A stretch of DNA of 51,458 nt from a virus, in the IMG/VR virus record IMGVR_UViG_3300028907_000006, positions 1 through 51,458 of that record, one strand, 5' to 3'. Below are positions 4,295 through 49,894 of this stretch, one piece after another. The translations under genes were made by a program, and so were the position numbers. Under the pieces are notes generated by a model, which was given only the letters and a program-made list of their open reading frames with translations, was not told the origin of the DNA and searched no databases. Position 1 is the stretch's first letter. Each line of letters starts with the position of its first letter.

Positions 4295-4314
4295 AAATGT
4301 AAGGAGGGAATAAA

Positions 4315-4740
4315 TTGGCTAACAAAGACTTGTTTAACAATTTGGCTGTTTACGGCCAGCTGAATGTTACCATCACTAGCACCAGTGCTCGTGTTGGCGA
4401 CATTGTGGATCGCAAAGGCTACGAATCAGTGCTGGCGATTATGTCTGCGGGGCAATCCACTGCAGGTAGTACCAGCGCAACTGTATTTACGCTTATTCAT
4501 GGAGATTCCTCCGGTCTGGGTGATGGCGCTGTAGTCACCGACGATTATCTCATCAACAACACTACAGCGGCTTCTTGGACTTGGACTTCTACCGGGAGTG
4601 ATGGTGATGTCGAGCGTGTAGGCTATCTTGGCGACAAACGGTATCTCCAAATGAGTGTGGCCTGTGCCACCACTAAAGAATCTGTGCCTGTTGGGTTCTT
4701 CATTTTCGGAAATCCCAGGAGTGCCCCGGTTTCCACCTAA
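4315..4740 (+). CDS. Small Ser/Thr/Gly-rich hypothetical head-module protein
   Basis: TTG start after AAGGAGGGA; 141 aa. S/T-rich tracts include VTITSTSARVG, SAGQSTAGSTSATV and TWTSTGSDG. Confidence 0.55.
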   Translation: MANKDLFNNLAVYGQLNVTITSTSARVGDIVDRKGYESVLAIMSAGQSTAGSTSATVFTLIHGDSSGLGDGAVVTDDYLINNTTAASWTWTSTGSDGDVERVGYLGDKRYLQMSVACATTKESVPVGFFIFGNPRSAPVST

Positions 4741-23876: not shown

Positions 23877-24296
23877 TTACACCAACTCCATAAAGTTGAT
23901 TGTTTTAATCCATTCCATAAAGCCGTTGGGATATGCGTTTCCCAATTTCGGTTTCTGATTGGACGCCAGCGGAGGATTATCATACAGCCCGAATTGCTGT
24001 TTGTAATCCATAAAATCGCTGGGGTCCAAAACTCCGTCTCCATTCAGATCGCATGCTCGGAACACCTCCGGGGTCAAGCGGTCTCTGCCCGCAGACACAT
24101 TTCCTTGGATATAATAGTAGTCATCTTGGGTAATTTTTCCATCACGATTAGCGTCCAAATTCGGCGTGTTAGCTACATGGGCGGCAACAATAACAGGCGT
24201 GAGCGGTACAACAGGAACAAAAAGCGGTGCGGCCTCAACGATAGGAGCTACCATAAGCAAAGAAGTTACAACAAAAGCTCCAAGCAATTTTTTCAT
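23877..24296 (-). CDS. Secreted protein with a dockerin-like double Ca-binding repeat
   Basis: Signal peptide MKKLLGAFVVTSLLMVAPIVEA. Two loops match the dockerin/EF-hand pattern D-x-N-x-DG: DANRDGKITQDDYYYI and DLNGDGVLDPSDFMDY. RBS AAGGAGGAG. Confidence 0.65.
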   Translation of the reverse strand: MKKLLGAFVVTSLLMVAPIVEAAPLFVPVVPLTPVIVAAHVANTPNLDANRDGKITQDDYYYIQGNVSAGRDRLTPEVFRACDLNGDGVLDPSDFMDYKQQFGLYDNPPLASNQKPKLGNAYPNGFMEWIKTINFMELV

Positions 24297-25821: not shown

Positions 25822-26095
25822 TATTTATCACCTTTTTAACATCGTTCAAACTTCTAGCCACTAAACATATTGCCCCGGCTTTCTCCCATTTAGCCAAATT
25901 CAGTTGTTGTTTCTTGGTAGGATTTTGCCCCGGCTGTTTGACTTCTATTCTTAGACAGCGACCATTCCAACAGCCATTTATGTCTGGCCTACCGAACTGG
26001 AAGGAATTACCCATCACCTTTTCTGCTACGCAACCAGTTACTCTGTTGTTAAGATATTCGAGAATGGATGCAGTGATGGAAGTCTCAAGTGGCAA
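25811..26095 (-). CDS. VRR-NUC domain nuclease
   Basis: GRPDINGCWNGRCLRIEVKQPG....Q..L.KWEKAGA fits the VRR-NUC PD-(D/E)XK pattern. Pairing with an SNF2 helicase is classic. Confidence 0.75.
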   Translation of the reverse strand: MPLETSITASILEYLNNRVTGCVAEKVMGNSFQFGRPDINGCWNGRCLRIEVKQPGQNPTKKQQLNLAKWEKAGAICLVARSLNDVKKVINNGT

Positions 26096-26418
26096 TTTTT
26101 TACATCTCCTTCCAAATTTTTATCGTCCAGATAATAGTGTGCGAACACTTTTCGAGTGTCGATATTAAACAACTTTTGAACTTCGGGCAAATTCTCGTTG
26201 ATGGCGTCAAACACCAATCCTCTCAAGAAACAAAACTCCACCGCTGAACTCAAATACTCTCCATGCCTACAAGTCCAAAGAATTAGCTTTGCCCCCCGGC
26301 TTTGGAGATTTAGCAATACGTCTATTATAGCCAAATTCGGTTGCCCTATCTCCGGGAATTGATCCTCCACCAATAGCCCGTCAAAATCAATCGCCAGTAT
26401 CAGTGGTAAATTCTTCAT
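26038..26418 (-). CDS. HAD-superfamily phosphatase-like protein (possible deoxynucleotidase)
   Basis: The N-terminal LAIDFDGLLV carries the DxD motif. Small phage HAD architecture. Confidence 0.55.
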   Translation of the reverse strand: MKNLPLILAIDFDGLLVEDQFPEIGQPNLAIIDVLLNLQSRGAKLILWTCRHGEYLSSAVEFCFLRGLVFDAINENLPEVQKLFNIDTRKVFAHYYLDDKNLEGDVKNCHLRLPSLHPFSNILTTE

Positions 26419-26743
26419 TTTCTGAACTCCTTATTTTCTCCACAAGCCAAACTCTCATCCAACCCTGGGCGTCAATCTTTTTCAGTTGTATAAATACATC
26501 AGGGTATATGGCTTGATACTTATCTGCCACGGCAAGTTTTAGCTCCTTGAAGGCTTCTTCGCTCTTGTCTAACTTTATACCAAAATCCATTCTCGCCCAG
26601 TATTCGAGAAGCCCATATAAACTTCCAAAGGCTTCTGCTTGTTTCTTCAACTGAGATTTGTATTCTTCAGGAAGATAGCAAAAATGAGCTTGATACAAGC
26701 CGTCAACAGTCTTAATGGGGTAGTGTATTTTTTTCAACATCAT
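26387..26743 (-). CDS. Hypothetical protein
   Basis: ATGATG at 26743/26740 lies after AAGGAG, inside the 3' end of the ThyA-like gene. The longer ORF-track start at 26803 is unlikely. Confidence 0.45.
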   Translation of the reverse strand: MMLKKIHYPIKTVDGLYQAHFCYLPEEYKSQLKKQAEAFGSLYGLLEYWARMDFGIKLDKSEEAFKELKLAVADKYQAIYPDVFIQLKKIDAQGWMRVWLVEKIRSSENEEFTTDTGD

Positions 26744-27401
26744 TGTCTCCTTCATACAGATGTAACGACCCAGCAATATGCGTGTACGAGCCAAGCTCCA
26801 CACCCAGTTCCATAGCTAATTTTGTTTGCATACAACTGAATGCGAACACGTCATAAGGAAATCCCAACCAAATATCGTTGCTTCTCATATATGTTGTTCC
26901 ATATAAAGCTCCTTCCCGGAGCAAATATTGAAGACAGATCGTACACGGCAAATCTTTTGTTGATATCGGGCTGGGTTCTTTTATGTGTATGATAGCTTGC
27001 CGAGAATTTGGATCCAAGGTGAGAAGTTGTTTAACGTATTCCCATTGGTCGAACATGTACTTGTTGTGTATTCTGTACCCATATGCAGAGTTCAACGTGA
27101 CTCCATCATCGGACATATCTTTCCAAAATTTGGCGTATGGCAATATGTCCGATAGTTTGTTGCTACCAGATAGATACCATAGCAACTCTCCAACAGCGTA
27201 TTTTATAGACATTTTTCTTACTGCCGATTGAAGGATATTGTTCCGGGGCTCAGTCAAGATCGTCACCGCATTTATGACTTCTCCTATGACTGGTTTGTAC
27301 CGGGATTTCATGACTTTTTCTTGAGACAACAGTATTTCGTACCATTCATCCCAGATTTCTGTTATGTTATTTCTCTCCACAACGATTCCAGAATATACCA
27401 T
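26712..27401 (-). CDS. ThyA-fold pyrimidine-nucleotide C5 hydroxymethylase/methylase, predicted dCMP-specific (T4 gp42-like)
   Basis: ELLWYLSGSN, DPNSRQAII, the catalytic Cys in DLPCTICLQY, and MRSNDIWLGFPYD. Compare E. coli ThyA QRSCDVFLGLPFN and T4 gp42 MRSNDVVFGFRND, both recalled from memory. Asp sits where ThyA has Asn177. Confidence 0.7.
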   Translation of the reverse strand: MVYSGIVVERNNITEIWDEWYEILLSQEKVMKSRYKPVIGEVINAVTILTEPRNNILQSAVRKMSIKYAVGELLWYLSGSNKLSDILPYAKFWKDMSDDGVTLNSAYGYRIHNKYMFDQWEYVKQLLTLDPNSRQAIIHIKEPSPISTKDLPCTICLQYLLREGALYGTTYMRSNDIWLGFPYDVFAFSCMQTKLAMELGVELGSYTHIAGSLHLYEGDNDVEKNTLPH

Positions 27402-27414
27402 TACAAATGTCCTC

Positions 27415-27831
27415 CTATTTGGATTTCCAATACACCGGCACTATCAAGGTTCGCTCGAATAGCTCTTTGAATCCTTTTCTGATTTTGTCTACATCCATAT
27501 TCTCCTTTCTTTTAGACAATCTATCTTTTACAACTTTAGTGTCTTCATCCACAAATATGACTTTAGCCCCAAGCTGTATCATGCGTCTTTCCAACCTTGT
27601 TAAATCGGACCAAGTCAATCTTCGGTCGGCGATTTCTTGATACACGAATTGTCCGTAGCAAAATCTGTCTGCAATTATATTATACTCCTTCGACTTGTCT
27701 ATTAGCTCGGAAAAAAATTCATGGTCGTAAGGACAACTGCAATGTACTATTCTAGCCTCAAACAAACCAGCCAAGTTCCGGGCTAATGTGGATTTTCCAG
27801 TCCCATCGCATCCTTCAAGAACCCATAGCAC
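27415..27831 (-). CDS. dNMP (thymidylate-type) kinase
   Basis: The P-loop LEGCDGTGKSTL resembles the thymidylate kinase E-G-x-D-G-x-GK-S/T motif. Adjacent to the ThyA-like gene. Confidence 0.65.
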   Translation of the reverse strand: MLWVLEGCDGTGKSTLARNLAGLFEARIVHCSCPYDHEFFSELIDKSKEYNIIADRFCYGQFVYQEIADRRLTWSDLTRLERRMIQLGAKVIFVDEDTKVVKDRLSKRKENMDVDKIRKGFKELFERTLIVPVYWKSK

Positions 27832-28393
27832 GATGCTTTTCCACCTCTCTCAAGAAATTTGACAACATTCGCTCTCTCTTGACTTTGGATGTATCAACCC
27901 TGATTGTATTGAATCCAGCCTCTCTAAAATATTCCACGCTATTGGTTACAGTTCTCCATTTATTACGGAGTATGGATTCATTTATCGGTTTTCCGCCATT
28001 TCTTTCCAATATTCTTTGGAGACAAACTTCTAGGGGTGGGGCTAATACCAGAATCAAAATGTTCCTGTCTTTATGGTATGGTTTTAGTGTGTCTATCGTA
28101 GGAGCTTTGACTGTTGAAAACATCACTCCTTCCATAAGTATATCGTGTTCTGGAAATTCTTGTACGGCGAACGCTAGAGCATCATTCATAATTTGGAAAT
28201 TCTTGTATCTATCCATACCTCCAGAAGTCTTATTGTATTTTCCAAGAGCTACCCAAGAAATATCCTTGAATACAGTTACTTCTTTGCCTTTATCTCCGAC
28301 AATCTCCCAATTGGAAATTTGTCTCATAGAATTAGGGAATGTGGATTTGCCCGAGCCATTACAGCCCCTAATATTCACCAACATTCTTTTCAA
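27815..28393 (-). CDS. P-loop kinase/NTPase of unknown substrate
   Basis: Walker A IRGCNGSGKSTF in a 192-aa small-kinase-like architecture. Confidence 0.5.
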   Translation of the reverse strand: MKRMLVNIRGCNGSGKSTFPNSMRQISNWEIVGDKGKEVTVFKDISWVALGKYNKTSGGMDRYKNFQIMNDALAFAVQEFPEHDILMEGVMFSTVKAPTIDTLKPYHKDRNILILVLAPPLEVCLQRILERNGGKPINESILRNKWRTVTNSVEYFREAGFNTIRVDTSKVKRERMLSNFLREVEKHRAMGS

Positions 28394-29411
28394 CGCCAGT
28401 CAATCCCTTCTGTATCCAAAGTTTTTTTCTTGCCGGCCTGATACCACGCCATCCTCCCAGTTCTCCTAACATGTGGGGCTCAAACAAGTTCCGTCGAATT
28501 TGAAATATGTTGTCCCATAAATCTCGCTGTTCTGGAAAATTCTCTTGGTAAAACAATAGATTTTCCAACTGGCGGTCGTGATGAAATCCTCCGTACCTTG
28601 CACCCTTGAAAAGATTGCGCCAACTACAAATTTTGTTAACTACAGACATCACTGGTATGGTCTCCAACGGAGCTTCTGCCGCACTTACAACAATTTTCAA
28701 ATACCCATCCAAACGGCGCATATCTCCAGCCGTCACCAATTTCTTTTTGTCGAACAAGTCTGCTTTCTCGTCATGGTAGAATATGTTGAATAGCCCGGAT
28801 GTAAGATTGCTACTGTCTTTCCAGCTGTACCCTCCTCCCATCAACTCCAAGTCTATCAACCCATTATTGTTAAAGGTTGTTATAGCTTCCATGAATAAGT
28901 CCACAGAGAATCTACCCATATACTTCCAAGAATTTAACTCATGCTCTATGGATTGAAAATTGTTCCGGGGGCTATCGCTATTAGCCAAACAATACAGCCA
29001 ATTAGTTGGGTCTTGAGCCGCAACTTCAAGAAACTGAACCATAAGCGGTACAAACCAATCCATATTCTTGACGTATTTTCTGGAGGAGTTGAATACAAGT
29101 TTGTCCTTGTACTTACTCCAGAATTTTTCCAAAGACGTAGTATTTAATTGCCTCAATTTATGGATAGGTATTTTATCCAATAAATATATGGCTGTTATCT
29201 CGCAATAAGTCATAGAGTGTAGCCAAGCCAAGTATATACAATTATCAGAGTCCAAATTGTTTATTACAGCGTATTCTCCAAGCGTCAACGGATCTATGGC
29301 CGGAGCATATTTTTGGTACTCTATGAACTTTTTTAATCTCCAAGGATGTCCTGTATCTCCTGGTATATTCACAATAACACCTCCATATGTAACTGGGGGC
29401 TGAGCCCCCAA
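28368..29411 (-). CDS. Hypothetical protein (334-347 aa), unrecognised family; candidate nucleic-acid-modifying enzyme by context only
   Basis: Long ORF. The likely start is the GTG at 29372, 5 nt after GGAGGTG, because a GGGGGCT/AGCCCCC hairpin (29392-29406) lies in the longer 5' extension. Confidence 0.5.
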   Translation of the reverse strand: MGAQPPVTYGGVIVNIPGDTGHPWRLKKFIEYQKYAPAIDPLTLGEYAVINNLDSDNCIYLAWLHSMTYCEITAIYLLDKIPIHKLRQLNTTSLEKFWSKYKDKLVFNSSRKYVKNMDWFVPLMVQFLEVAAQDPTNWLYCLANSDSPRNNFQSIEHELNSWKYMGRFSVDLFMEAITTFNNNGLIDLELMGGGYSWKDSSNLTSGLFNIFYHDEKADLFDKKKLVTAGDMRRLDGYLKIVVSAAEAPLETIPVMSVVNKICSWRNLFKGARYGGFHHDRQLENLLFYQENFPEQRDLWDNIFQIRRNLFEPHMLGELGGWRGIRPARKKLWIQKGLTGVEKNVGEY

Positions 29412-37586: not shown

Positions 37587-39517
37587 TGTACGTTGCCCCT
37601 TTCCATTCCAATACCTTTCCATATAGCTTCGCCAGATTTTGGGTGTCTAGCTTCTCTATAAGTTGTCTTCATGTATCGGTTGAAGTCATGGTATTTCTCT
37701 GGCTGTCGTCCAGTTGCTAGACAATAATTTACATACGATTCATACATTACACGCTTTACTACGATAAAGTTATTTGCTACTACGCATTTTTGTTTTACAT
37801 AAGCGTGTATGGAATCGCTATCTTGCCTTAGCATATCCACCAGAGCTTTACTGGATTTTGGATTCGGCATAGTCTTTAAGGGAAGAAAACTCAATATGTG
37901 CGGCAATACAGATTCTATATTCTTGGAGGAACACAATTTATTTACATAATCGTTGTTAAGCCTCAAGGCGTGTGGCATAGCCAATATTCTCATGCGCTCG
38001 TAGAACGCATCTGACTTCTCCTCCAATTGTAGCGGTAATTGATTAAAGGAGAAAACCAATTTGGCGAATGACACAAAAAAGAATGGGTCTTTGCCCTTCT
38101 TCTCATGCATGATATGATCTCCACCAGTTATTTTCTTTATATTGTCTATGGAGCTTAGTGGTAGGGATGAGTTGTCGGCGCAAGAGTTTAGGAGCTTTCC
38201 ATACAGTTGTGATGGGTAAAATTTTCTGTTAAGATCGTGCATAGACAAGGAGCTTACATTTTTAGCCCCCACCAACGATTCCATGAATCTTATGAGTACA
38301 GATTTTCCAGTATTGGATGGCCCGACCAGAGTCAAAAAAGTCTTCAACCCACGGTCGGAAATCAATGTATAAGCCATGTACGACATCAACAATTCTAACT
38401 CCGGGGGCAACAATTTTACTTCTCCAACCAGAAAATCGTACAACATGGTGTTCTCAAAAACTTTATTGGTTGGAGTATAGTTGTGAGGAATTTGTATCAT
38501 CTGCAGATATTTTTTGTCGTGAGGCAACAACTCCTTACGGCGTATATCCCAAACACCGTTGAGAAAATTTATCAAATTTTTGTCTGCGTCTAAGCTGCTA
38601 GACGATTGTTGTAATTCTGGCTCTTTTAACAAGAGCTTAAATACATCAGAAATTCTTGCGTGGGTAATTAGGTGTGGTGCTACTACCAGTTCTTGGATAA
38701 TTTTTTGTACTTCTAGGCTGGACTCTCGGAACACTCCTTTGTGGTATTTGTATACTTCATTACCCATTACAAACACTTCCCGGCTGTCCTTAAAGTAATC
38801 CACAATTGCTCGGGCATTTATCTGGGCTGGCACTCCTTTGGCGTTATAGAGTACAAATGGATTGTCTCCGGCCACCTCATAGCGTTGCGTGTTGTTAAGT
38901 ATTTTTTCAAGCTCCTCCGGGCTCATGGGTTCTTCAAACACAATCTTGTTGATGATATCCGCCATAGCCCGAAGTTGATTTTCACTGGCCCCAGATCGCT
39001 TATAAGCCATCAAGTGCGTAAATAATTTGGCGTTTCTTCCATCTCCTTCTTTTAAGTTGTAAAGAGATTCGCATTTGATTTGAATGACTGTAAATTCTAG
39101 TGGAAGAGGAGCTATTTGTTTGGAGTTGTTGAATTTTCTTCCTTCGGTGCCGTAGGGCAAAATTACATACCCTTTTTTAGCCACTCGGTAGTCACATTTT
39201 AATCCACAAGGAAGAATCATTCCAACCTTTTGCTTGTACTGGGTATCGGTCTCAAAATATAGGTGTAATCCCTTTGGCGTTTCTGCCGTAAGAGTATCTA
39301 TTCCCAACGCTTTTATAACTCTCTTGGCTTTGTCCTTGCCCTCATCTATGTCTACTACAATATATCCTTTTCTAACCCACCAGCCTATTTGCCCTCCATT
39401 ATTTACGTGGGCTTTTGCTTTGAATACGTTGATTACATCCCGGTCAATTCGCTCTTTGCCCCGGCAACGCACATAAGAATCTCCACCAATTAGCTCGTCA
39501 AATTCTTCGATTCGCAT
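37583..39517 (-). CDS. Bifunctional primase-polymerase / SF3 (D5/P4-type) helicase
   Basis: The N-terminal prim-pol-like region has GYIVVDIDEGKD. The C-terminal Walker A is LTLVGPSNTGKS with D5_N-like spacing. Confidence 0.8.
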   Translation of the reverse strand: MRIEEFDELIGGDSYVRCRGKERIDRDVINVFKAKAHVNNGGQIGWWVRKGYIVVDIDEGKDKAKRVIKALGIDTLTAETPKGLHLYFETDTQYKQKVGMILPCGLKCDYRVAKKGYVILPYGTEGRKFNNSKQIAPLPLEFTVIQIKCESLYNLKEGDGRNAKLFTHLMAYKRSGASENQLRAMADIINKIVFEEPMSPEELEKILNNTQRYEVAGDNPFVLYNAKGVPAQINARAIVDYFKDSREVFVMGNEVYKYHKGVFRESSLEVQKIIQELVVAPHLITHARISDVFKLLLKEPELQQSSSSLDADKNLINFLNGVWDIRRKELLPHDKKYLQMIQIPHNYTPTNKVFENTMLYDFLVGEVKLLPPELELLMSYMAYTLISDRGLKTFLTLVGPSNTGKSVLIRFMESLVGAKNVSSLSMHDLNRKFYPSQLYGKLLNSCADNSSLPLSSIDNIKKITGGDHIMHEKKGKDPFFFVSFAKLVFSFNQLPLQLEEKSDAFYERMRILAMPHALRLNNDYVNKLCSSKNIESVLPHILSFLPLKTMPNPKSSKALVDMLRQDSDSIHAYVKQKCVVANNFIVVKRVMYESYVNYCLATGRQPEKYHDFNRYMKTTYREARHPKSGEAIWKGIGMERGNVQ

Positions 39518-39870
39518 CCATCCACCGCCCTGTCTATTGTTGTAGTATACATGGTAGAATCTGGTGTATTCAACCAGCGTTCTAGACGTAGCATTTTGTT
39601 ATCTATGGCCTGAAACAACTCGTAGGAGTTAAAGTTGAATATCATCATTACATGATTCATGACTATAAATACATCCGCTAATTCATCCAGAACTTTATCG
39701 TGTAAATTAGTTTGGGCGGCTTCGTGGTTTGGATATCTGGGGTATTTAGCCAACACTGCGGCCAGCTCGTTCAACTCCTCTATCGCTACCATAATCTGGT
39801 TATTGAATCCATACAGTTGTTGGGCTTTAGACAATACCTTCTTCAGATACTCCGGGCTGTACTCAATCAT
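39490..39870 (-). CDS. MazG-like all-alpha nucleoside-triphosphate pyrophosphohydrolase
   Basis: VAIEELNELAAVLAKY...LDELADVFIVMNHV carries the EExxE...D metal-binding helices of the MazG/dUTPase-like family. Confidence 0.65.
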   Translation of the reverse strand: MIEYSPEYLKKVLSKAQQLYGFNNQIMVAIEELNELAAVLAKYPRYPNHEAAQTNLHDKVLDELADVFIVMNHVMMIFNFNSYELFQAIDNKMLRLERWLNTPDSTMYTTTIDRAVDGCESKNLTS

Positions 39871-40342
39871 TTCTGTCCTCCTCCGAATAGCTGGAAAAAT
39901 GTACTACATTGACGTGGCCCGATTCTAATATGTTTTGAGTTTGTTGAGAGATCGGTTGCTGGCGCCCATAATACACGTTCGAGATTCCAGCTAACACGAT
40001 TGCCCGGGCACACGCTTCGCAAGGGTATCGAGTTACATACAGCCAACAACCGGTCAAATCTTGTTTGGCGTTGATTATGGCGTCTATCTCCGCATGAACG
40101 CTTCTACAATCGGAGGGCAGTCTGTGATTTTTGCTGTCGTCACCGTATTTGTCCTGGCGCATACAACTGTACGTGCATGACGGCACGGACACATTAGCCC
40201 CGAAGGATATGATTCTGGCGTCGTTTTTGTGCTGGGTTCGATTGTAACGAACTATGACCGCCCCTACAGACACCTTTCTACAAGTGGATTGCATGCCAGC
40301 ATACTGAGCGGCCAGCTCCATTAGTTTTTTAGTTGTAACCAT
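39863..40342 (-). CDS. dCMP deaminase
   Basis: Zinc motifs VHAEIDAI and PCEACARAI, with size typical of ComEB/T4 cd-type deaminases. Confidence 0.85.
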   Translation of the reverse strand: MVTTKKLMELAAQYAGMQSTCRKVSVGAVIVRYNRTQHKNDARIISFGANVSVPSCTYSCMRQDKYGDDSKNHRLPSDCRSVHAEIDAIINAKQDLTGCWLYVTRYPCEACARAIVLAGISNVYYGRQQPISQQTQNILESGHVNVVHFSSYSEEDRND

Positions 40343-40938
40343 ATTTCCTCCTTTATCTGGCGTGGGGTTATTTTCTGGTCTGTATAATATCCTCCGGTAG
40401 CAACCATGTAATCGCTAGGCGGCCATTGTATCGGGATTTTGAATACATCTTCTGTGAGAGAGCATACATTTACGCCTGTGGCTTCGAGCTGGTATGACGG
40501 GTTTTTACACTTTTTGGTTTTGGTGTATTGGCACCCAGCGCACCCACCTACTCTGAAATATTTTCCATTTGGATAAGATATTGAGAGAGATCGAGAGAGC
40601 TTATTGAGAGCATTTCGGGTCAAGTAGTGGAGCCCAGTACGCATAAAGTACAGTCTTGACTTGGATGCGTCAACTTTCGGGTACACAGGAAAATAGTCTT
40701 TGGAGTGAGCGATGACGCATATTATATAGAAGCAATTTTTTCTCGGCATATTGCCGAACAGAGGAGTTTTTGGGGGGCAACATGGACGGTTATTAAAGTT
40801 AGCGCACTGGTGGTCGTGGGTACACCACCAAGTTTGTTGCTCGGGCTCATAGTGTTGGAGGATTCTCTCGGGAGTTATGCGGGTACATAATACTTGGTAT
40901 TTGACTCCTGCTTTTGACTCCAGTTGTAGCGAGATCAT
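40321..40938 (-). CDS. Cys-rich putative metal-binding protein (DUF2284-like?)
   Basis: CANFNNRPCCPP and GGCAGCQ motifs. The family assignment is tentative and from memory. Confidence 0.4.
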   Translation of the reverse strand: MISLQLESKAGVKYQVLCTRITPERILQHYEPEQQTWWCTHDHQCANFNNRPCCPPKTPLFGNMPRKNCFYIICVIAHSKDYFPVYPKVDASKSRLYFMRTGLHYLTRNALNKLSRSLSISYPNGKYFRVGGCAGCQYTKTKKCKNPSYQLEATGVNVCSLTEDVFKIPIQWPPSDYMVATGGYYTDQKITPRQIKEEIWLQLKN

Positions 40939-41231
40939 ATCATGCGCTCCAATGCTTTCAACTTTCTACAGACTTTACAGATCGTGTGGAGCCCATCTCT
41001 TGAAATCTTGTTTTGATGGAACTCCGACGCAGGCTTGAATGTAAGACATCTTTTACAAAATTTGTCTGGCGGCGTGGGAATCTGCGTTGGCCCCGACCAT
41101 GAGGAAGAATATTGTTTCATACACTCCTTACACCAAGATTGTCTCTGGTCTGGACTCTTTTTACTCTTGAAGAACTCGTTGAGGGCTTTGTTTTGCTTAC
41201 ACTTAGCGCATCTTTTCTGGTGTTGGTACAT
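40935..41231 (-). CDS. Double zinc-finger protein; first gene of the early operon (candidate regulator)
   Basis: Two CxxC...F......CKxC units (CAKCKQNKALNEF...CKECM and CKRCLTFKPASEF...CKVCR). Basic overall. Confidence 0.5.
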   Translation of the reverse strand: MYQHQKRCAKCKQNKALNEFFKSKKSPDQRQSWCKECMKQYSSSWSGPTQIPTPPDKFCKRCLTFKPASEFHQNKISRDGLHTICKVCRKLKALERMI

Positions 41232-42904: not shown

Positions 42905-43420
42905 GTGGGTTATAAAGGTGCTGGTATTAGTCCTCCAGATCGCAAAATTTTTGGAACATATAGCAATGGGCTAGTTCTTGAGTTGTTGACTCCAGAAGTG
43001 AGTAAGAAAATTTGTAACTTGGTTCGTGTTGGGAACTACTTGGATACAGCGGCCGCAGCTTGTGGCGTTACCAGAGCTACGCTTCACCGATGGTTGCGTA
43101 TAGGAAACAAAGATTTAGAGATGGGCCGCAAAACAGTTCACTCCCGCTTTGTAAATCGGGTTCATAGAGTCATGGCTGAATCTGAACTTTTGTCTCTCGC
43201 AATGCTGAACGATCATGGGTTGAAATCGTGGCAAGCGGTTGCTTGGAAGATGGAGCGGAGATTCCCGGAACGTTGGGGGAAGAGCTACAAGGCTGAGATT
43301 GAATTGACTGGAAAAGATGGTGGTCCAATTGAGATCGGAGATGCTAGAAAACAACTCCTTGGCCGACTATTTGCGGATGAACCCAGTCTTGGGGAAACAG
43401 AAAATAGCGAGGATGAGTGA
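42905..43420 (+). CDS. terS: Terminase small subunit
   Basis: The GTG at 42905 is 5 nt after GAGGAGGTGA. Helix-turn-helix AAACGVTRATLHRWLRIG. The stop overlaps the terL start. Confidence 0.7.
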   Translation: MGYKGAGISPPDRKIFGTYSNGLVLELLTPEVSKKICNLVRVGNYLDTAAAACGVTRATLHRWLRIGNKDLEMGRKTVHSRFVNRVHRVMAESELLSLAMLNDHGLKSWQAVAWKMERRFPERWGKSYKAEIELTGKDGGPIEIGDARKQLLGRLFADEPSLGETENSEDE

Positions 43421-44636
43421 TTCTGAAGCATTAGAGTTGATGTATAATTGGTCTTTTTGGGCCAGGCCAAATCAAATTCCTCCTTCGGCTGTAGATTGGA
43501 GTACATGGTTGATATGTACCGGGCGTGGCTGGGGGAAAACTCGGACTGGTGCTGAGTGGGTGAGATGGTTGGCTGAAAGCGGTAAATTTGGGAGGATTGC
43601 TCTGGTCGGGGCTACGGCGGCTGACGTCAGAGATATCATGATTGAAGGAGACAGTGGGATAAAGGCTGTTTGTCCTCCATGGAACTATCCTAATTATGAG
43701 CCCAGCAAGCGGAGATTGACTTGGCCTAATGGCGTCCGGGCTATCGCATATTCTGCTGAAGAACCAGCCCGGTTGAGGGGGCCACAGCATCATGCGGCTT
43801 GGGCCGACGAATTGGCTAGTTGGAAATATCCTGAGACATACGATATGCTGTTGTTAGGGTTGCGGCTAGGGGTTAAGCCAAGAGTGGTAGTCACAACCAC
43901 TCCTAAACCAATCAAAATCATACGAGAATTGGTGAAAGACGACACCACCACAGTAACTACTGGGAGCACTTTTGAAAATCGAGCTAATCTGGCTAAGACA
44001 TTTCTAAATGAAGTCACAAAGAAGTATGAAGGCACTAGGCTCGGGCGCCAAGAATTGTATGCGGAAATTCTTGAAGATGTCGAGGGGGCTTTGTGGAATC
44101 GGGACATGCTGGAAGCTGTAAGGGTGTCTACAGTTCCAGACATGAAAAGAATTGTAGTTGCCGTTGATCCTTCGGTTTCTAACAATGAAAATTCGGCTGA
44201 GACTGGAATTATAGTTGTTGGTCTGGGGGTAGATGGTAATGGGTATATCATCGATGATAAAAGCATGGTAGGTTCTCCCGACGAATGGAGCAGTGAAGTC
44301 ATAGCTCTCTATAACAAACACAAAGCAGATCGAATTGTTGTTGAAGTTAATCAAGGTGGAGATTTGGTTGAGACTGTTTTGAGAACCAAATTCACGAGGG
44401 CGCCAATTAAGAAGGTTCATGCTTCCCGGGGCAAACAAACAAGAGCTGAGCCGGTGGTAGCTTTGTACGAACAAAAGAGAGTTAAACATATTGGATTTTT
44501 TCCTTTTCTGGAAGATCAACTCTGCTCTTGGGTCCCAGGAATAAGTAAGAGTCCAGACAGAATGGATGCTCTTGTTTGGGGGATTACAAGTTTGATGCTT
44601 GAAAATGAGCCGACTTTGCGGGTCAGGCGTTTATAA
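43413..44636 (+). CDS. terL: Terminase large subunit
   Basis: ATG at 43413 (GGATGAGTGA overlap with the terS stop). WSFWARPNQIPP...LICTGRGWGKTRTGAEW (Walker A) and a C-terminal RNaseH-like nuclease region (VAVDPS...). Confidence 0.9.
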   Translation: MSDSEALELMYNWSFWARPNQIPPSAVDWSTWLICTGRGWGKTRTGAEWVRWLAESGKFGRIALVGATAADVRDIMIEGDSGIKAVCPPWNYPNYEPSKRRLTWPNGVRAIAYSAEEPARLRGPQHHAAWADELASWKYPETYDMLLLGLRLGVKPRVVVTTTPKPIKIIRELVKDDTTTVTTGSTFENRANLAKTFLNEVTKKYEGTRLGRQELYAEILEDVEGALWNRDMLEAVRVSTVPDMKRIVVAVDPSVSNNENSAETGIIVVGLGVDGNGYIIDDKSMVGSPDEWSSEVIALYNKHKADRIVVEVNQGGDLVETVLRTKFTRAPIKKVHASRGKQTRAEPVVALYEQKRVKHIGFFPFLEDQLCSWVPGISKSPDRMDALVWGITSLMLENEPTLRVRRL

Positions 44637-44649
44637 GGGGGCGTGGGGG

Positions 44650-45429
44650 TTGAGAAAAATAACTCAGTTGTGTCTGGGTACAGTTCAACTTGGTATGCCT
44701 TATGTTACCAAAAAACCAAAATTGAAGGATTCATTGGAGATTCTTGCGTTTGCTGAGAGCGCAGGAATTTCTTGTTTTGATACAGCTCAAGCCTATGGTA
44801 CAGCGGAGGAGATTTTGGGTACATTCGGTATGGGTGGAGACAGAAAGGTGATTACCAAGTTACACCCGGATGCTACAAGGGTCGATATTCAACTGTCGTT
44901 GGATAGATTGGGTGTAAGTAAGGTGTTTGCTTTTTTGTTGCATCGGCCCAGCCATATGTATTCGTATGGAATCGCTCACCGTATGAGAGAGTTGAGAGAG
45001 CAGGGTTATTGCGATCATGTGGGAGTATCTGTGTATGATAAAGGAGATGCTATTTGGGCGGCTAATGCTGATTGGGTTAGCGCCATAGAATTTCCTTATA
45101 ACTTGTTGTGTAAGGAGCTGGATGATTCTCCCTTCTTCGACTTGGCGGCAGGGAAGGTGCTGATAGCAAGACAGCCATTCGCTAAAGGTGAATTGTTCCG
45201 CTGTGGGATGGACTTCTTTGGGGTGAATCGGGCTCAGGCGTGTCTGCAATTTGTTATGAATCATATACCCAGGTTCGACTATGTGGCCTTCGGGGTAGAT
45301 GATTTAAGACAATTGCAGGAGAATGTTGAGGGCTCAAAGAAAAGCGTGCCGATGATGGAATCCAATCGAATTTGGAGAGAATCATTGAAGCTCAACGCTT
45401 ATCTGCCGCCCAGTTTGTGGGCCAATTAG
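44650..45429 (+). CDS. Aldo/keto reductase-family oxidoreductase
   Basis: LGTVQLGMPY...SAGISCFDTAQAYGTAEEILG is the AKR N-terminal signature. TTG at 44650 after AAGGGGGCGTGGGGG. Confidence 0.65.
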   Translation: MRKITQLCLGTVQLGMPYVTKKPKLKDSLEILAFAESAGISCFDTAQAYGTAEEILGTFGMGGDRKVITKLHPDATRVDIQLSLDRLGVSKVFAFLLHRPSHMYSYGIAHRMRELREQGYCDHVGVSVYDKGDAIWAANADWVSAIEFPYNLLCKELDDSPFFDLAAGKVLIARQPFAKGELFRCGMDFFGVNRAQACLQFVMNHIPRFDYVAFGVDDLRQLQENVEGSKKSVPMMESNRIWRESLKLNAYLPPSLWAN

Positions 45430-46128
45430 ATGGGTGTTGTAGCTATCGTTCAAGCTCGACTAGGGTCAACTAGGTTGCCTGGAAAAGTTCTAATGGACTT
45501 GGAGGGGCAACCCATGTTGTATAGACAACTTGAAAGAATCAAAAGAAGTAGGTTGTTGGATGATGTGGTGGTAGCAACCAGCTGTTTGGAGAAAGATAAT
45601 GCTTTGGAAGAGTTCTGCTGGCGTGTAGGGGTTGCATGCTACCGGGGCTCAGAGAAGGATGTTCTGAGTAGGTATTTGGCTACCGCTTATCATATTGGGC
45701 TTTCTGATGGTGATAGTATAGTTCGATTGACTGCAGATTGTCCGTTGACTGATTGGCGCATGATAGATCGGGTTATACTGAACCACAAGAAGTATGGAGC
45801 AGACTATACGTCAAATGTAATTCCTCCTACTTATCCTGATGGATTGGATGTAGAAGTTTTTACACTTGATACATTGGAGAAAGCCTGGATTCATAACAAT
45901 AAAGTTCATTGCGAAGATTGTTCGGAACATGTTACGACCCACATGAAAGATTTGAAATACTTCAAGACCATAAGTGTAGTGGGTGAAGAAGATTTGTCTA
46001 GGCTGAAGTGGTCGGTAGATACTATGGACGATTTGATGTTTGTGAGGGGGGTGTATAAAAAGTTGTTTAAGTCCAATCCCGACTTCGGGGCAGAGGAAAT
46101 TTTGGAGCTGTATGGCAATCGAATTTGA
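45430..46128 (+). CDS. SpsF/COG1861-type cytidylyltransferase (acylneuraminate cytidylyltransferase-like; candidate CMP-sugar synthetase)
   Basis: VAIVQARLGSTRLPGKVL N-terminal motif. Confidence 0.7.
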   Translation: MGVVAIVQARLGSTRLPGKVLMDLEGQPMLYRQLERIKRSRLLDDVVVATSCLEKDNALEEFCWRVGVACYRGSEKDVLSRYLATAYHIGLSDGDSIVRLTADCPLTDWRMIDRVILNHKKYGADYTSNVIPPTYPDGLDVEVFTLDTLEKAWIHNNKVHCEDCSEHVTTHMKDLKYFKTISVVGEEDLSRLKWSVDTMDDLMFVRGVYKKLFKSNPDFGAEEILELYGNRI

Positions 46129-46168
46129 CTGGATACAATAAGAGAGTGTAAATGAAGGAGGGGCAATT

Positions 46169-47416
46169 GTGAATTTTTCCGAGTCAGACGTGGCGTTGGA
46201 AAGAGCTTTACAAGTTATTCCAAATGGGACATGTACGTTCTCAAAATCTCGAACCATGCTCCCGGTCGGGCATAGCCCATTTTATGCAGACAGAGGATTT
46301 GGCGGTCATCTGTGGGACATTGATGATAATGAATTTTTGGACTTGACTATGGGGCTAACTGCGGTCACTCTCGGGTATAGACACAAAAGAGTGGACCAAG
46401 CAGTTATGGCTCAAGTAAAAAGGGGAGGAGCTATTTTCTCTCTGCCTCAAAATTTGGAAATTACCGTGGCTGAACGAATAATTGATATGGTTCCTTGTGC
46501 CGAGATGGTGAGATTTGGCAAGAATGGGTCTGATGTAACTGCTGGAGCAGTAAGATTGGCTCGATATGTTACTGGGCGAGATATGGTGTTGTGTTGCGGC
46601 TACCATGGTTGGCAGGATTGGTACATCGGCACTACCGGGAGGAATGGGGGCGTGCCGGCGGTTGTATCGGAGTTGACTAAACAATTTCGGTACAATGATA
46701 TTCTTCACCTCACTGTTCTGTTGGAGAAGTATGAAGGCCAAGTTGCTTGCGTGATTATGGAGCCAATGAATAGGGTTTTTCCCGTTCCTGGCTTTTTGCA
46801 ATCGGTACAAAATTTGTGTAAGAAATATGGCGTGATATTTATTTTGGATGAAGTTATTACCGGATTCCGTTTTGCAAATGGCGGGGCTCAGGAGTATTTT
46901 GGAATTGTTCCTGATATGTGTACTCTTGGAAAAGGGATTGCCAATGGGTATCCTCTATCAGCTGTTTGCGGCAAACGAGAATTGATGGAGGAGTTCTCCA
47001 AGATACACTTCTCATTCACCTACGCCAGTGACTCGATTGCTTTAACAGCGGCTAATACTACGTTGTTGGAGTACAAGTATGGAGATGTCTGTGAGAAGTT
47101 AGCTGAGCGTGGAGAAAAGTTGAAGACGGAGTTAAACAAGAGTATTCGGGAGATTGGGATCACGCATTTAATTTCTTCGGTCAGCGGCCATCCGGCTTGG
47201 TCTCATTTCAACTTCAAAGATGATGTGGTTAAAAGCGAGTTTTTGAAGCAAGTACACTCTCTTGGAATATTGACTGCAGGTACAAATAATTTGTGCTATA
47301 TGCATACAGACGCAGATATTGATTATGCTCTATGTATGTACGAGATAGCATTTGAGCGTTTGGCCTCTCTTGATTGGACTAAAGCTGATTGCTTGGTTGA
47401 GAGGGGGGTCAGATAA
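46169..47416 (+). CDS. Class-III PLP-dependent aminotransferase (glutamate-1-semialdehyde aminomutase-like)
   Basis: GTG after GAAGGAGGGG. DEVITGFRF and the PLP-lysine region CTLGKGIANGYP. Confidence 0.75.
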   Translation: MNFSESDVALERALQVIPNGTCTFSKSRTMLPVGHSPFYADRGFGGHLWDIDDNEFLDLTMGLTAVTLGYRHKRVDQAVMAQVKRGGAIFSLPQNLEITVAERIIDMVPCAEMVRFGKNGSDVTAGAVRLARYVTGRDMVLCCGYHGWQDWYIGTTGRNGGVPAVVSELTKQFRYNDILHLTVLLEKYEGQVACVIMEPMNRVFPVPGFLQSVQNLCKKYGVIFILDEVITGFRFANGGAQEYFGIVPDMCTLGKGIANGYPLSAVCGKRELMEEFSKIHFSFTYASDSIALTAANTTLLEYKYGDVCEKLAERGEKLKTELNKSIREIGITHLISSVSGHPAWSHFNFKDDVVKSEFLKQVHSLGILTAGTNNLCYMHTDADIDYALCMYEIAFERLASLDWTKADCLVERGVR

Positions 47417-47946
47417 TGAAAGAAGTATCCTTCAAGGCGTTGAAAAAAGAGGACATGGCTCAGATCGTGGAATGGAGAAATTCTACTGTTGGTGTATTGC
47501 GTACTCCATTCTTGATGACTAAAGATATGCAGGAGGAGTTCTATGAAAGAACGGTCTGTGATCGTGGGGCTGATTCCAGATATTTCGCTATTCATTTTGA
47601 TGGTTCTCTGGTTGGTATGGCAGGCGTAAACAACATATCTTGGGAGAACCGCAATGGAGAAATCTCTTTGTTAGTCAATCCGAAGTTGCGGGGCAAAGGG
47701 ATCGGCTCTATGGCTGTTTTGGAAATTTTGCGTATCGGATTCAACTGCATGAACTTGGAGAATATCTATGGCGAGTGCTATTTCAGCAATCGGGCTGGAA
47801 TAAAGTTCTGGGAATCGCAAATTGAAAGGTTTCATGGATACACGGCTATCCTTCCCAACAGAAAGTTCTTTGGAGGAGAATACCACGACTCATTGTACTT
47901 CTCCTTTAATCGTAAAACTGTTTGGGAGGGGGGCGAACGTGTATGA
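47416..47946 (+). CDS. GNAT N-acetyltransferase (PseH-like)
   Basis: L.KEDMAQIVEWRNS......P and the GNAT core RGKGIGS. TAATG overlap with the upstream stop. Confidence 0.65.
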   Translation: MKEVSFKALKKEDMAQIVEWRNSTVGVLRTPFLMTKDMQEEFYERTVCDRGADSRYFAIHFDGSLVGMAGVNNISWENRNGEISLLVNPKLRGKGIGSMAVLEILRIGFNCMNLENIYGECYFSNRAGIKFWESQIERFHGYTAILPNRKFFGGEYHDSLYFSFNRKTVWEGGERV

Positions 47947-48911
47947 GGCTCAAATTTATTGCTGAGATGAGCGCAAACCACAACGGTTCTTTGGAGAGGG
48001 CGTTAAAGATCGCTGAAATGGCCGCTGGAGCTGGCTGTTTTGCGCTGAAGCTCCAAACATACACTCCCGAAGAAATTACAATGGACCCAGAGCTGAGGAA
48101 AATTTATGAAGTAGGACAAACGCCCAGGGAATGGCACAAAGATATTTTCAATCATTGTAAGGTGCTAGGCATACGCTGTTTTTCGTCCCCATTCAGCGTT
48201 GGTGCCGTCGATTTTCTGGAACAATTTGAGCCCTGGGCGTACAAAATATCCAGCTTTGAGATTGGGGATTTGGAGTTGGTAAAAGCCGTAGCCAAAACAA
48301 AGCGGAACGTTGTTATGTCTATTGGAATGGCGTCGAAGCTGGAAATTCAATTGGCTTTGGATACGCTGAGGGAATATGGGGCGGCGTCAATAACTCTATT
48401 GAAATGTACTTCGGCTTATCCTGCTCCGGTCGAGAATATGAATTTGATTACATTGCTTGAAATGAAAAGGTTGTATAAAACCGAGGTGGGAATATCAGAC
48501 CACAATTTATCCCATTTGCCTTCGCTAGTGGCTATTTCACTTGGGGCTACTATGGTTGAAAAACACTTTACGTTGAAGCGGAGCGATGGTGGGATTGACT
48601 CCATGTTTTCGATTGAGCCCGGGGAGATGGTTGATTTAATCGCTCAAGCCGGTTGGGTTGAAAAGATTGCGGGCAAAGTCCATTTTGGTCCCACTCCCGG
48701 AGAACGTGTGGATTTGAAAAGATCGCTACATGTTGTTGAGGATTTGAAGAAAGGCGATGCGCTAGGATTCAACAACGTAAAGGCTCTCAGGCCGGCTGGA
48801 GGGTTAGCCCCCAAGACTTTATACAGCATACTCGGGGCTCATGTAAATAAAGATGTATCTGCTGGCTCTCCGTTGACGATAGACATGGTTGAATTCGGGA
48901 GGGTTAAATAA
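47943..48911 (+). CDS. NeuB/PseI-family nonulosonic-acid synthase (PEP-condensing) with a C-terminal SAF-like domain
   Basis: FIAEMSANHNGSLERALKIAEMAAGAG..ALKLQTY and ISDH. The ATG at 43 of 47943 overlaps the GNAT stop (ATGA). Confidence 0.8.
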   Translation: MRLKFIAEMSANHNGSLERALKIAEMAAGAGCFALKLQTYTPEEITMDPELRKIYEVGQTPREWHKDIFNHCKVLGIRCFSSPFSVGAVDFLEQFEPWAYKISSFEIGDLELVKAVAKTKRNVVMSIGMASKLEIQLALDTLREYGAASITLLKCTSAYPAPVENMNLITLLEMKRLYKTEVGISDHNLSHLPSLVAISLGATMVEKHFTLKRSDGGIDSMFSIEPGEMVDLIAQAGWVEKIAGKVHFGPTPGERVDLKRSLHVVEDLKKGDALGFNNVKALRPAGGLAPKTLYSILGAHVNKDVSAGSPLTIDMVEFGRVK

Positions 48912-49894
48912 TGAGGGGGGCTACAGTTTTAATCACTGGCGGCACAGGGTCATTCGGAAAAGCATTTGTAAAACACATTTTGAATTTTGGATATGGCGTT
49001 AAAAAAATCATTGTCTTATCTCGGGATGAGCTCAAGCAATCGGAAATGGCTGTGGAGTTTAACAATGACGACAGGCTAAGGTTCTTTATTGGTGATGTCC
49101 GTGATAAAGATCGTTTAATTAGGGCATTTTACGGAGTGGATTATGTTATTCATGCGGCGGCTTTGAAGCGAATCGAGGTGGGTGAATATAATCCAGGAGA
49201 ATTTCTGAAGACTAATGTGTTGGGTACACAAAATGTTGTTGAGGCGGCAATAACTTGTGGCGTCAAAAAGTGTATGTTACTGAGTACAGATAAAGCCTGT
49301 GCTCCAGTTAACACATATGGGAAAACAAAGGCGTTGGCTGAATCCCTTTTTGTTGCGGGCAATTCCTACTCGGGCATGAATTTGCCGAGATTTTCTGTTG
49401 TTAGATACGGTAATGTGCTTGGTAGCAGGGGTAGTGTAATCCACCTATTCAAGGAGCAAGCTAAAACCGGGACAATAAAGATAACAGATTTGGGAATGAC
49501 TCGGTTTTGGATCACTCTCGACAGCGCAGTACAGTTTGTATTGGATTGTCTCTGCGTTATGAAGGGTGGAGAAATTTTTGTACCCAAACTCCCGAGTATG
49601 AGGGTTATGGACTTAGCTATGGCGATTGCCCCTAACACAAAAACCGAGGTGATTGGGGTTCGTCCGGGCGAGAAGATTCATGAGTATATGATAAACAAGG
49701 ATGAATCCCGCCATGCTTTGGATGATATGTCTAGGTACATTATTTATCCAGAGTATCAATTTTGGGGGCAAACGGCCTATTCTGGAGTTCCTGTACCTGA
49801 AGGTTTTGAATACTGTAGCCATTTGAATGACGTATGGTTGAGCGTGAAGGAGTTGAAGGAGGTTGTTTCAAAAGATAAGGGGTTTGTGGTATAA
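48911..49894 (+). CDS. pseB: UDP-GlcNAc 4,6-dehydratase (PseB/FlaA1/CapD-type SDR)
   Basis: VLITGGTGSFGKAF, LSRDELKQ, RFFIGDVRD and NTYGKTKALAESLF (YxxxK). Confidence 0.8.
   Translation: MRGATVLITGGTGSFGKAFVKHILNFGYGVKKIIVLSRDELKQSEMAVEFNNDDRLRFFIGDVRDKDRLIRAFYGVDYVIHAAALKRIEVGEYNPGEFLKTNVLGTQNVVEAAITCGVKKCMLLSTDKACAPVNTYGKTKALAESLFVAGNSYSGMNLPRFSVVRYGNVLGSRGSVIHLFKEQAKTGTIKITDLGMTRFWITLDSAVQFVLDCLCVMKGGEIFVPKLPSMRVMDLAMAIAPNTKTEVIGVRPGEKIHEYMINKDESRHALDDMSRYIIYPEYQFWGQTAYSGVPVPEGFEYCSHLNDVWLSVKELKEVVSKDKGFVV

Follow-up and report, generated by a model that had tools for sequence, protein, structure and literature searches.

A phage locus in which a thymidylate synthase-like enzyme with the residues of a cytosine-reading hydroxymethylase stands beside a DNA kinase and a transferase of families known from thymine hypermodification raises the question of which base is finally decorated. 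The locus lies in IMG/VR virus record IMGVR_UViG_3300028907_000006, positions 1 to 51,458; the whole of this 51,458-nucleotide stretch is called the window below. Its open reading frame (ORF) 26712-27401 (minus strand) encodes a protein of the thymidylate synthase (TS) fold, predicted here to be a 2'-deoxycytidylate (dCMP) 5-hydroxymethylase. In the reading we favour, to which we assign a probability of about one in two, 5-hydroxymethyl-dCMP (5hm-dCMP) would be made, incorporated into DNA as 5-hydroxymethylcytosine (5hmC) and then phosphorylated and substituted in the DNA, yielding a hypermodified cytosine.

The TS-fold enzyme

The original prediction, drawn from the letters of the window, had described ORF 26712-27401 as a TS scaffold carrying Asp at the position of Asn177 of Escherichia coli ThyA. 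The strings it quoted were present exactly (ELLWYLSGSN, DPNSRQAII, DLPCTICLQY and MRSNDIWLGFPYD). The ORF starts with ATG, with AGGAGG 9 nt upstream, and matched Pfam PF00303 (E 3.5e-26) and phrog_5131 (E 6.7e-47). Both comparison strings were also found as described: E. coli K-12 ThyA reads QRSCDVFLGLPFN and T4-type gp42, taken from RB32, reads MRSNDVVFG-FRND. The best solved relative was the CMP 5-hydroxymethylase MilA (E 1.7e-33), with thymidylate synthases at about 1e-17, and all NCBIfam thymidylate synthase equivalogs scored far below their cut-offs (for example 77 versus 327 bits).

A MAFFT L-INS-i alignment with ThyA, gp42 and SPO1-type enzymes, numbered on E. coli ThyA, placed Asp184 of the window enzyme, and not an Asn, at position 177, as had been claimed. 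HMMER alignments with solved structures likewise paired this Asp with the Asn of Bacillus subtilis ThyA ('gnpfNvf') and with the Asp of MilA. A single G-to-A change would turn its codon into one for Asn. The TS core residues E72, Y107, C153, R173, D176, H214 and Y216 were aligned and invariant, with ThyA counterparts E58, Y94, R166, D169, H207 and Y209.

At ThyA positions 126, 143, 146, 147, 167, 169 and 177 the window enzyme has R-D-C-T-S-D-D, the same as T4-type gp42. ThyA has R-L-C-H-S-D-N at these positions, MilA K-D-C-T-A-D-D, and the dUMP hydroxymethylases of CampHawk (SPO1-like), CP-51, Se-B (ViI-like) and Clover (M6-like) R-D-C-N-S-D-N together with a one-residue loop insertion. Several of these positions have an established meaning. 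At 177, Asn selects U and Asp selects C, and the pyrimidine preference was swapped by N177D in thymidylate synthase and by D179N in the T4 hydroxymethylase (cited in PMC13326640, PMC8670742). Position 147, His in ThyA, differs between cytosine-modified and unmodified contigs (MetaGPA, PMC8670742); Thr154, which occupies it in the window enzyme, is common to gp42 and MilA, and dUMP hydroxymethylases have Asn there. Position 143 is bulky and hydrophobic in methylases, where it excludes water, and acidic in hydroxymethylases (PMC13326640). Since Asp at 143 was also found in the dUMP hydroxymethylases examined, this residue separates hydroxymethylases from methylases and not C from U. The pair R126'/S167, as opposed to K/A, marks a preference for deoxy- over ribonucleotides (PMC5175136), and Arg134/Ser174 of the window enzyme are the corresponding pair of 2'-deoxynucleotide-specific members. 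Asn in place of ThyA D169 marks 5-hydroxy-dCMP synthases (PMC13326640); Asp176 of the window enzyme retains the ThyA residue.

Because its R-D-C-T-S-D-D signature is identical to that of gp42, the enzyme is very probably a 2'-deoxycytidylate hydroxymethylase. That dCMP is the substrate we infer by analogy, from the established mutagenesis of N177 and D179. The original prediction had left hydroxymethylase and methylase side by side; the former stands, in view of Asp at 143, Thr147, the retained Asp169 and the Arg126/Ser167 pair, and the latter had to be dropped.

Four other assignments were weighed on the same residues and did not fit. A 5-hydroxy-dCMP synthase of the RB69 gp48 type was ruled out by the retention of Asp176, i.e. 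the lack of D169N, and a ribonucleotide enzyme of the MilA/BcmA type by Arg134/Ser174 in place of Lys133'/Ala176. A canonical ThyA was ruled out by Asp, Thr and Asp at 143, 147 and 177, by the equivalog scores and by the missing C-terminal closing segment, the protein ending 13 residues past its HLY motif. A dUMP hydroxymethylase of the SPO1 gp29 type did not fit by residues: Asp184 and Thr154 both stand where that type has Asn, the loop insertion is lacking, and the chain, at 229 versus about 390-430 aa, has none of the long C-terminal extension seen in the dUMP enzymes.

Conservation of the specificity residues

The protein database held 2,539 homologs at E <= 1e-10. All of the 120 homologs retrieved (57-99% identity; one at 99%, 119 at 57-68%) carried Asp at position 177, and the combination Thr147/Asp177 was present in 80/80 related loci on viral contigs, the most distant of them at 29% identity. 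When 1.84 billion cluster representatives were scanned exhaustively with HMMER, 634 matched at E <= 1e-30. Counted by alignment, 149 of the best 150 of these had Asp177 and 140 of the 150 had the full gp42 signature. Conserved across homologs, viral loci and cluster representatives alike, Asp184 is therefore not a sequencing accident. Thr147 was paired with Asp177, and Asn147 with Asn177, throughout. This co-variation makes the residue state a fixed property of a large family. The lone exception among the 150 nearest representatives, P0330, combined Asn177 with Thr147 and Gly167 (loop NMRGNDMWLG-TPYN) and may be a natural reversion.

In a megablast search of 50,697 phage records the 7-kb region found no match, so that the phage has no close cultured relative. 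The nearest one is Agathobaculum phage AB434P2 (OP172633), the TS homolog of which (3838-4500; loci L001/L092) shares 56.7% protein identity with the window enzyme. In GenBank this homolog is named 'deoxyuridylate hydroxymethyltransferase', yet it has the Thr147/Asp177 signature, and the product name is probably wrong. Around it lie genes for a HAD/sugar-kinase-like and a cytidylyltransferase-like protein and for two unknown ones, without the kinase/ADDT pair described below, and no deaminase was detected on the 44-kb record.

The kinase and transferase of the cassette

The gene of the TS homolog closes a cassette: directly upstream of it on the same strand stand genes for a Tmk-like kinase, a PF18748 kinase and a protein resembling amino-acid:DNA transferases (ADDT), and a HAD phosphatase gene lies downstream (Table 1). 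The PF18748 kinase scored 79.4 bits against a cut-off of 27 and has the P-loop GCNGSGKST; its residues G10, K16, D61, E88 and R131 were conserved across 80 kinases of this family.

The ADDT-like protein reached 24.5 bits with PF18724, under the cut-off of 26.2. Most of its 312 homologs had no Pfam call, few reached PF18724 and several were fused to a PF18748 kinase. An AlphaFold2 model built from a 52-sequence alignment had a predicted local distance difference test score (pLDDT) of 93 and a predicted template modelling score (pTM) of 0.91. Compared with the Protein Data Bank (PDB), its sole meaningful match was PaMx11 gp46 (8z2m; TM 0.50/0.58), all others being at or below 0.17. Among the viral structures of BFVD, proteins named as ADDT matched it at a probability of 1.00, with TM values reaching 0.76. 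At the level of this model the ADDT fold is confirmed. PaMx11 gp46 is a glycinyltransferase acting on 5-phosphomethyl-2'-deoxyuridine (5-PmdU), with catalytic Cys247 and neighbouring Glu243. Cys262 is invariant in the ADDT-like family, and an alignment that was colinear but of very low confidence placed it opposite Cys247, with Val/Asn opposite Glu243/Thr244. Searched by sequence against the PDB, neither the DNA kinase nor the pyrophosphohydrolase of Table 1 gave anything meaningful, and nor did the ADDT-like protein, queried both singly and as a family profile; PADLOC had no match for the cassette proteins.

Table 1. Positions of the TS-fold enzyme, its diagnostic sites and the genes discussed with it (window coordinates)
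Feature	Position	Strand	Size or basis
TS-fold enzyme, predicted dCMP 5-hydroxymethylase (5hm-dCMP synthase)	26712..27401	-	229 aa; PF00303, MilA match, seven-position signature
Asp184 codon GAC, at the ThyA Asn177 / T4 gp42 Asp179 position (pyrimidine specificity)	26850..26852	-	
Active-site stretch Asp150-Leu-Pro-Cys153-Thr154	26940..26954	-	Asp150 = L143, Cys153 = catalytic nucleophile, Thr154 = H147 position
Tmk-like dNMP kinase, predicted to phosphorylate the hydroxymethylated mononucleotide	27415..27831	-	138 aa; PF02223 E 3e-10; phrog_761
P-loop DNA nucleobase kinase, 5-hmdU DNA kinase family (5-HMUDK)	27815..28393	-	192 aa; PF18748 E 3.4e-22
Divergent amino-acid:DNA transferase (ADDT / aGPT-Pplase clade 2 fold)	28368..29411	-	347 aa; PF18724 sub-threshold; fold match
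HAD-type phosphatase, accessory; candidate nucleotide phosphatase	26038..26418	-	126 aa; NF046079 97.7 bits (cut-off 165); phrog_24386/phrog_1238
dCMP deaminase	39863..40342	-	159 aa; PF00383 E 1.1e-17; phrog_174 E 1.5e-34
NTP pyrophosphohydrolase, candidate dCTPase	39490..39870	-	126 aa; phrog_2245 E 2.2e-13; adjoins deaminase

Recurrence of the coupling

Loci were merged per contig, which gave 116 distinct Asp-type contigs, and co-occurrence was scored within flanks of ±10 kb for up to 80 loci per survey, both of which limit the counts. A PF18748 kinase was present in 49/116 of these contigs. An ADDT-like gene accompanied it in 44 of the 49 and never occurred without it; a glycosyltransferase-like gene was also found in 11 of the 49. 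When the survey was anchored on the kinase instead (alignment A2, 80 further loci), an Asp-type TS homolog was found in 56 loci and an Asn-type one in 29, among them ~158-kb and M6-like contigs, and no locus had both. In a simple neighbour-joining tree the main Asp-associated kinases formed one clade, sister to an Asn-associated clade, with three long-branch exceptions outside; the clade of the window kinase occurred exclusively with Asp-type TS homologs. The coupling of Asp-type TS homologs with the kinase/ADDT cassette is thus common and phylogenetically coherent.

Within the clade of the window enzyme (at least 50% TS identity) the partner genes vary: some members have kinase and ADDT, some TAGT-like or phrog_842 genes, some both, and others the AB434P2-type set of sugar-kinase-like, cytidylyltransferase-like and unknown proteins. 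The glycosyltransferase-like partners of this clade belong to PF20691 (TAGT) and to phrog_842 (beta-glucosyl-HMC-alpha-glucosyltransferase). GATase and other tailoring genes are present in relatives of the cassette.

Several arrangements in the survey are worth recording. ADDT-like proteins fused to the PF18748 kinase (P0153, P0155-P0157, P0205, P0230) are ~530 aa long, and fusions of Asp-type TS with the Tmk-like kinase, ~440-530 aa, are common among the representatives (P0245, P0246, P0255, P0260, P0285, P0288). A single protein of 616 aa joins TAGT to an Asp-type TS (P0303). At L009 (7024-7926) and about ten further loci (e.g. L094, L110, L112, L118, L123, L130, L131) a phrog_842 gene, also matched by the TAGT-derived profile, is clustered with ADDT and kinase; at L009 it adjoins Fe-ADH and HAD genes. 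Such phages may carry two decorations or a glycosylated adduct. In the Asn-type sister clade (L134, L139, L145, L148) the kinase lies within a protein of ~580-640 aa and the TS homologs have ~390-430 aa; the two lineages thus differ in domain architecture besides their specificity residues.

A proposed hypermodified cytosine and its alternatives

For the window phage, the reading we favour would run as follows. Cys153 would attack C6 of dCMP, the methylene of 5,10-methylene-tetrahydrofolate would be moved to C5, and the exocyclic methylene would be hydrated and not reduced, which would give 5hm-dCMP; Asp184 would read the N3/N4 face of cytosine. The Tmk-like kinase, together with host enzymes, would bring 5hm-dCMP to the triphosphate, and the family-A polymerase of the phage would insert 5hmC in DNA, with dCMP deaminase and NTP pyrophosphohydrolase keeping the pools in balance, as they do in T-even phages. 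Once the DNA is replicated, the 5-hydroxymethyl group on it would be phosphorylated by the PF18748 kinase, and the ADDT-fold enzyme, probably via Cys262, would swap the phosphate for an amino acid or amine. The hypermodified cytosine would protect the phage DNA against nucleases of the host.

The base that finally results probably goes beyond 5hmC in complexity. With regard to the modified cytosine that had been expected in this DNA, the part that follows from a dCMP enzyme holds, and plain 5hmC or 5-methylcytosine is incomplete as an answer, since the kinase/ADDT cassette had been overlooked. We tentatively propose, with slightly less confidence than in the pathway itself, that the cassette is the first cytosine-directed kinase/amino-acid-transferase route, with adducts such as N-alpha-aminoacyl-5-methylcytosine that have not yet been reported in any genome. 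The action of kinase and transferase on 5hmC rather than on 5-hydroxymethyluracil (5hmU) is more speculative than the dCMP substrate of the first enzyme.

The deaminase and its neighbour fit a cytosine modifier. In MetaGPA, dCMP deaminase (the second most enriched domain), PRA-PH pyrophosphohydrolase and thymidylate kinase were enriched on physically selected cytosine-modified contigs, so that a deaminase is to be expected here, as in T4. A kinase acting on 5hmC has been proposed, not demonstrated, for TET-bearing contigs (PMC8256090). Most phage 5mYOX/'TET' dioxygenases now appear to be thymine-specific (PMC13229309), and association with TET therefore does not fix the acceptor base. The glycosyltransferase neighbours (TAGT, phrog_842), considered at one point as proof of 5hmC, were downgraded for a similar reason: they do not fix the acceptor base.

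A number of observations weigh against a kinase and transferase working on cytosine. Kinase and ADDT together are the signature of thymidine hypermodification, which proceeds from a dUMP hydroxymethylase over 5hmU in DNA and 5-phosphomethyl-dU to an amino-acid adduct (PMC5889632, PMC8989533), and every characterised PF18748 kinase and ADDT acts on bases derived from 5hmU. The phage dioxygenases co-occurring with kinase, ADDT and GATase are thymine dioxygenases (PMC13229309). The enriched-domain table of MetaGPA lists neither the kinase nor the ADDT domain and so gives no direct support for a 5hmC kinase/ADDT. Comparison of the kinases from Asp- and Asn-type contexts gave no sharp specificity-determining position, only soft differences such as E/D versus K/P/V at residue 82. 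The ADDT-like protein is too diverged for its Cys/Glu to be mapped with confidence onto PaMx11 gp46; hhalign of its family with gp46 or gp46-like proteins stayed below 1% probability, and base-reading and catalytic residues can therefore not be transferred from gp46. All substrate assignments rest on sequence signatures and gene context. Finally, the phage dCMP deaminase could in principle convert 5hm-dCMP to 5hm-dUMP. As to published work, none of the papers searched links 'dCMP hydroxymethylase' with 5-HMUDK or aGPT-Pplase, and neither PMC5889632 nor PMC8989533 describes an assay of the kinase with 5hmC DNA.

The conversion by the deaminase is the core of the alternative that survives best, a detour to uracil, which we nevertheless regard as unlikely. 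In it 5hm-dCMP would be deaminated to 5hm-dUMP, which would enter the canonical 5hmU, 5-HMUDK and ADDT pathway. Such a detour would leave all characterised kinase/ADDT pairs with the one substrate, 5hmU, on which they act; the genome carries the necessary dCMP deaminase, and in the relatives L016-L019 the deaminase gene lies less than 1.5 kb from the kinase gene. T-even dCMP deaminases accept 5-substituted dCMP in vitro. A functional tie between deaminase and kinase was however not reflected in their distribution: the deaminase was found in 16/49 kinase-bearing and in 14/67 kinase-less Asp-type contigs within the flanks (Fisher p = 0.20), i.e. there was no association, and a deaminase ortholog (47% identity) occurs on a TAGT-type contig without the kinase. 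A scan anchored on the deaminase did find orthologs elsewhere on several kinase-type contigs, so that absences limited to the flanks are unreliable; a scan of the loci anchored on the primase returned nothing. A deaminase is also the norm for cytosine modifiers in MetaGPA. Furthermore, the detour would leave 5hm-dCTP in the pool, and a direct and simpler dUMP route exists in nature.

That the Asp-type enzyme is itself a dUMP hydroxymethylase and the cassette an ordinary one for thymidine hypermodification, which is the GenBank view of the AB434P2 homolog, seems to us quite improbable. The gene context of the window enzyme is the same in kind as that of M6, ViI and PaMx11, with their association of 5-HMUDK and aGPT-Pplase/ADDT, and the identity of the enzyme to SPO1-like dUMP hydroxymethylases, at 31-32%, is slightly above the 26% to gp42. 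Among the traits that define the SPO1 gp29 type, this genomic association alone speaks for that family. A 2021 metavirome survey likewise labelled neighbouring TS homologs of this sort 'dUMP hydroxymethylase', from Pfam annotation. This assignment conflicts with the classical mutagenesis of N177D, N229D and D179N (cited in PMC13326640, PMC8670742). All four cultured dUMP hydroxymethylases examined have Asn147/Asn177 and the window clade has Thr/Asp throughout, and the window enzyme has neither their loop insertion nor their long C-terminal extension.

A dCMP methylase of the XP12 type, leading to 5-methylcytosine, is scarcely credible: Asp177 alone would be compatible with it, the engineered N229D thymidylate synthase (cited in PMC13326640) being an example, but position 143 holds Asp and not a water-excluding bulky hydrophobic residue, the chain stops soon after HLY without the ThyA C-terminal segment, and the neighbouring DNA kinase needs a hydroxymethyl group.

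Genome and further genes

The window has an exact 127-bp direct terminal repeat (1-127 and 51332-51458), and a Mu-F-like head gene reads through the repeat junction; it is therefore a complete, circularly closed phage genome of ~51,331 bp. It encodes a family-A polymerase, a primase-helicase, a terminase, a portal and tail genes.

Deaminase and pyrophosphohydrolase lie side by side ~12 kb from the cassette, and the pyrophosphohydrolase accompanied the deaminase in 24 of the 30 deaminase-bearing Asp-type contigs. Directly upstream of this pair (40321-41231, minus strand) stand a DUF2284 predicted metal-binding protein (205 aa) and a 98-aa Cys-rich zinc-finger-like protein; DUF2284 homologs occurred in only 5 of the 93 first loci. 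On the other side of the TS homolog, a HAD phosphatase homolog was found nearby in 67 surveyed loci. Between the two genes in the window lies a small ORF (26387-26803, minus strand), 138 aa long when read from GTG and probably ~117 aa from an internal Met; it matched neither Pfam nor PHROG, and at the corresponding place relatives, too, carry two or three small uncharacterised genes.

The small protein encoded at 23877-24296 (minus strand) is secreted and carries calcium-binding repeats of the dockerin type I / EF-hand kind (PF00404 E 3.7e-6), a hint of a host among cellulosome-bearing or related Clostridia. Going by the closest cultured relative, the host would probably be an Oscillospiraceae-type Clostridium. 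A six-gene cluster of the nonulosonic-acid type (44599-49894, plus strand) separates the large terminase (43317-44636) from the portal gene (49863-51077). It encodes an aldo/keto reductase, a CMP-sugar cytidylyltransferase (PF02348), a class-III aminotransferase, a GNAT protein, a NeuB-family synthase and a PseB-like 4,6-dehydratase. NeuB-type genes are nearly absent from cultured phages, with 3 weak matches in 50,697 records. No glycosyltransferase was found among the ORFs scanned in this genome; candidate targets of the sugar are a virion protein, the host surface or DNA.

Significance

To our knowledge, every amino-acid or polyamine hypermodification of phage DNA sits on thymine, and those known for cytosine comprise sugars, a carbamoyl group and a hydroxyl group. 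If 5hmC were acted on by kinase and transferase, the resulting base would belong to a chemical class new to DNA, spread in a large and mostly uncultured phage lineage, and the substrate range of two enzyme families of interest for enzymatic 5hmC tagging and sequencing would be extended. If the detour to uracil were true, it would constitute a new biosynthetic route to a known class of modification. Some Asp-type clusters could have been counted among the thymidine hypermodification clusters of earlier Pfam-based surveys, and metavirome clusters labelled in this way from Pfam alone would need re-reading if cytosine is the base. Under either reading, TS positions 147 and 177 should be checked before a cluster is labelled, given the non-overlapping split of kinase-bearing loci into 56 and 29.

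Comparison with known systems

T4 gp42, represented by RB32, shares with the window enzyme the TS fold, the seven discriminating residues and the length of the loop, at an overall identity of ~26%. In both phages a dNMP kinase, a dCMP deaminase and an NTP pyrophosphohydrolase accompany the enzyme. The two systems differ in what would follow: T-even phages glucosylate 5hmC, whereas the window enzyme has a DNA nucleobase kinase and an amino-acid:DNA transferase as partners. The closest solved relative, MilA of mildiomycin biosynthesis (PDB 5b6d, 5jnh), shares Asp143, Thr147 and Asp177. It is a bacterial secondary-metabolism enzyme of 325 aa in which Lys133' and Ala176 favour ribonucleotides, whereas Arg134 and Ser174 of the window enzyme are of the deoxy type. 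Judged by its residues, the window enzyme is a distant member of the gp42 kind, nearer to MilA in sequence but with the ribose-reading residues of a predicted deoxynucleotide enzyme.

The 5-hydroxy-dCMP synthases of RB69, DLP3 and RL38JI (PMC13326640) share N177D and an acidic residue at 143 and often have an adjacent Tmk-like kinase and HAD phosphatase; the D169N of the RB69 type is absent from the window enzyme. In TET/5mYOX clusters (PMC8256090, PMC13229309), too, P-loop kinases, ADDTs or glycosyltransferases accompany a source of 5-hydroxymethylpyrimidine. In these clusters a dioxygenase makes the hydroxymethyl group on DNA, and those dioxygenases which are linked to kinase and ADDT are thymine-specific (PMC13229309); the source in the window would be a pre-replicative enzyme of the dCMP type.

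The nearest parallel in cassette logic is the thymidine pathway of M6, ViI, PaMx11, SP10 and PhiW-14, with the same families of kinase (PF18748) and ADDT fold. Its entry enzyme has Asn147/Asn177, the loop insertion and about 390-430 aa, in contrast to Thr/Asp and 229 aa in the window. The kinases of the two systems fall in separate clades, and profile comparison of the window ADDT with gp46 fails. In terms of its predicted proteins, the window system is a thymidine hypermodification cassette in which the entry enzyme has been exchanged for a putative cytosine-type one.

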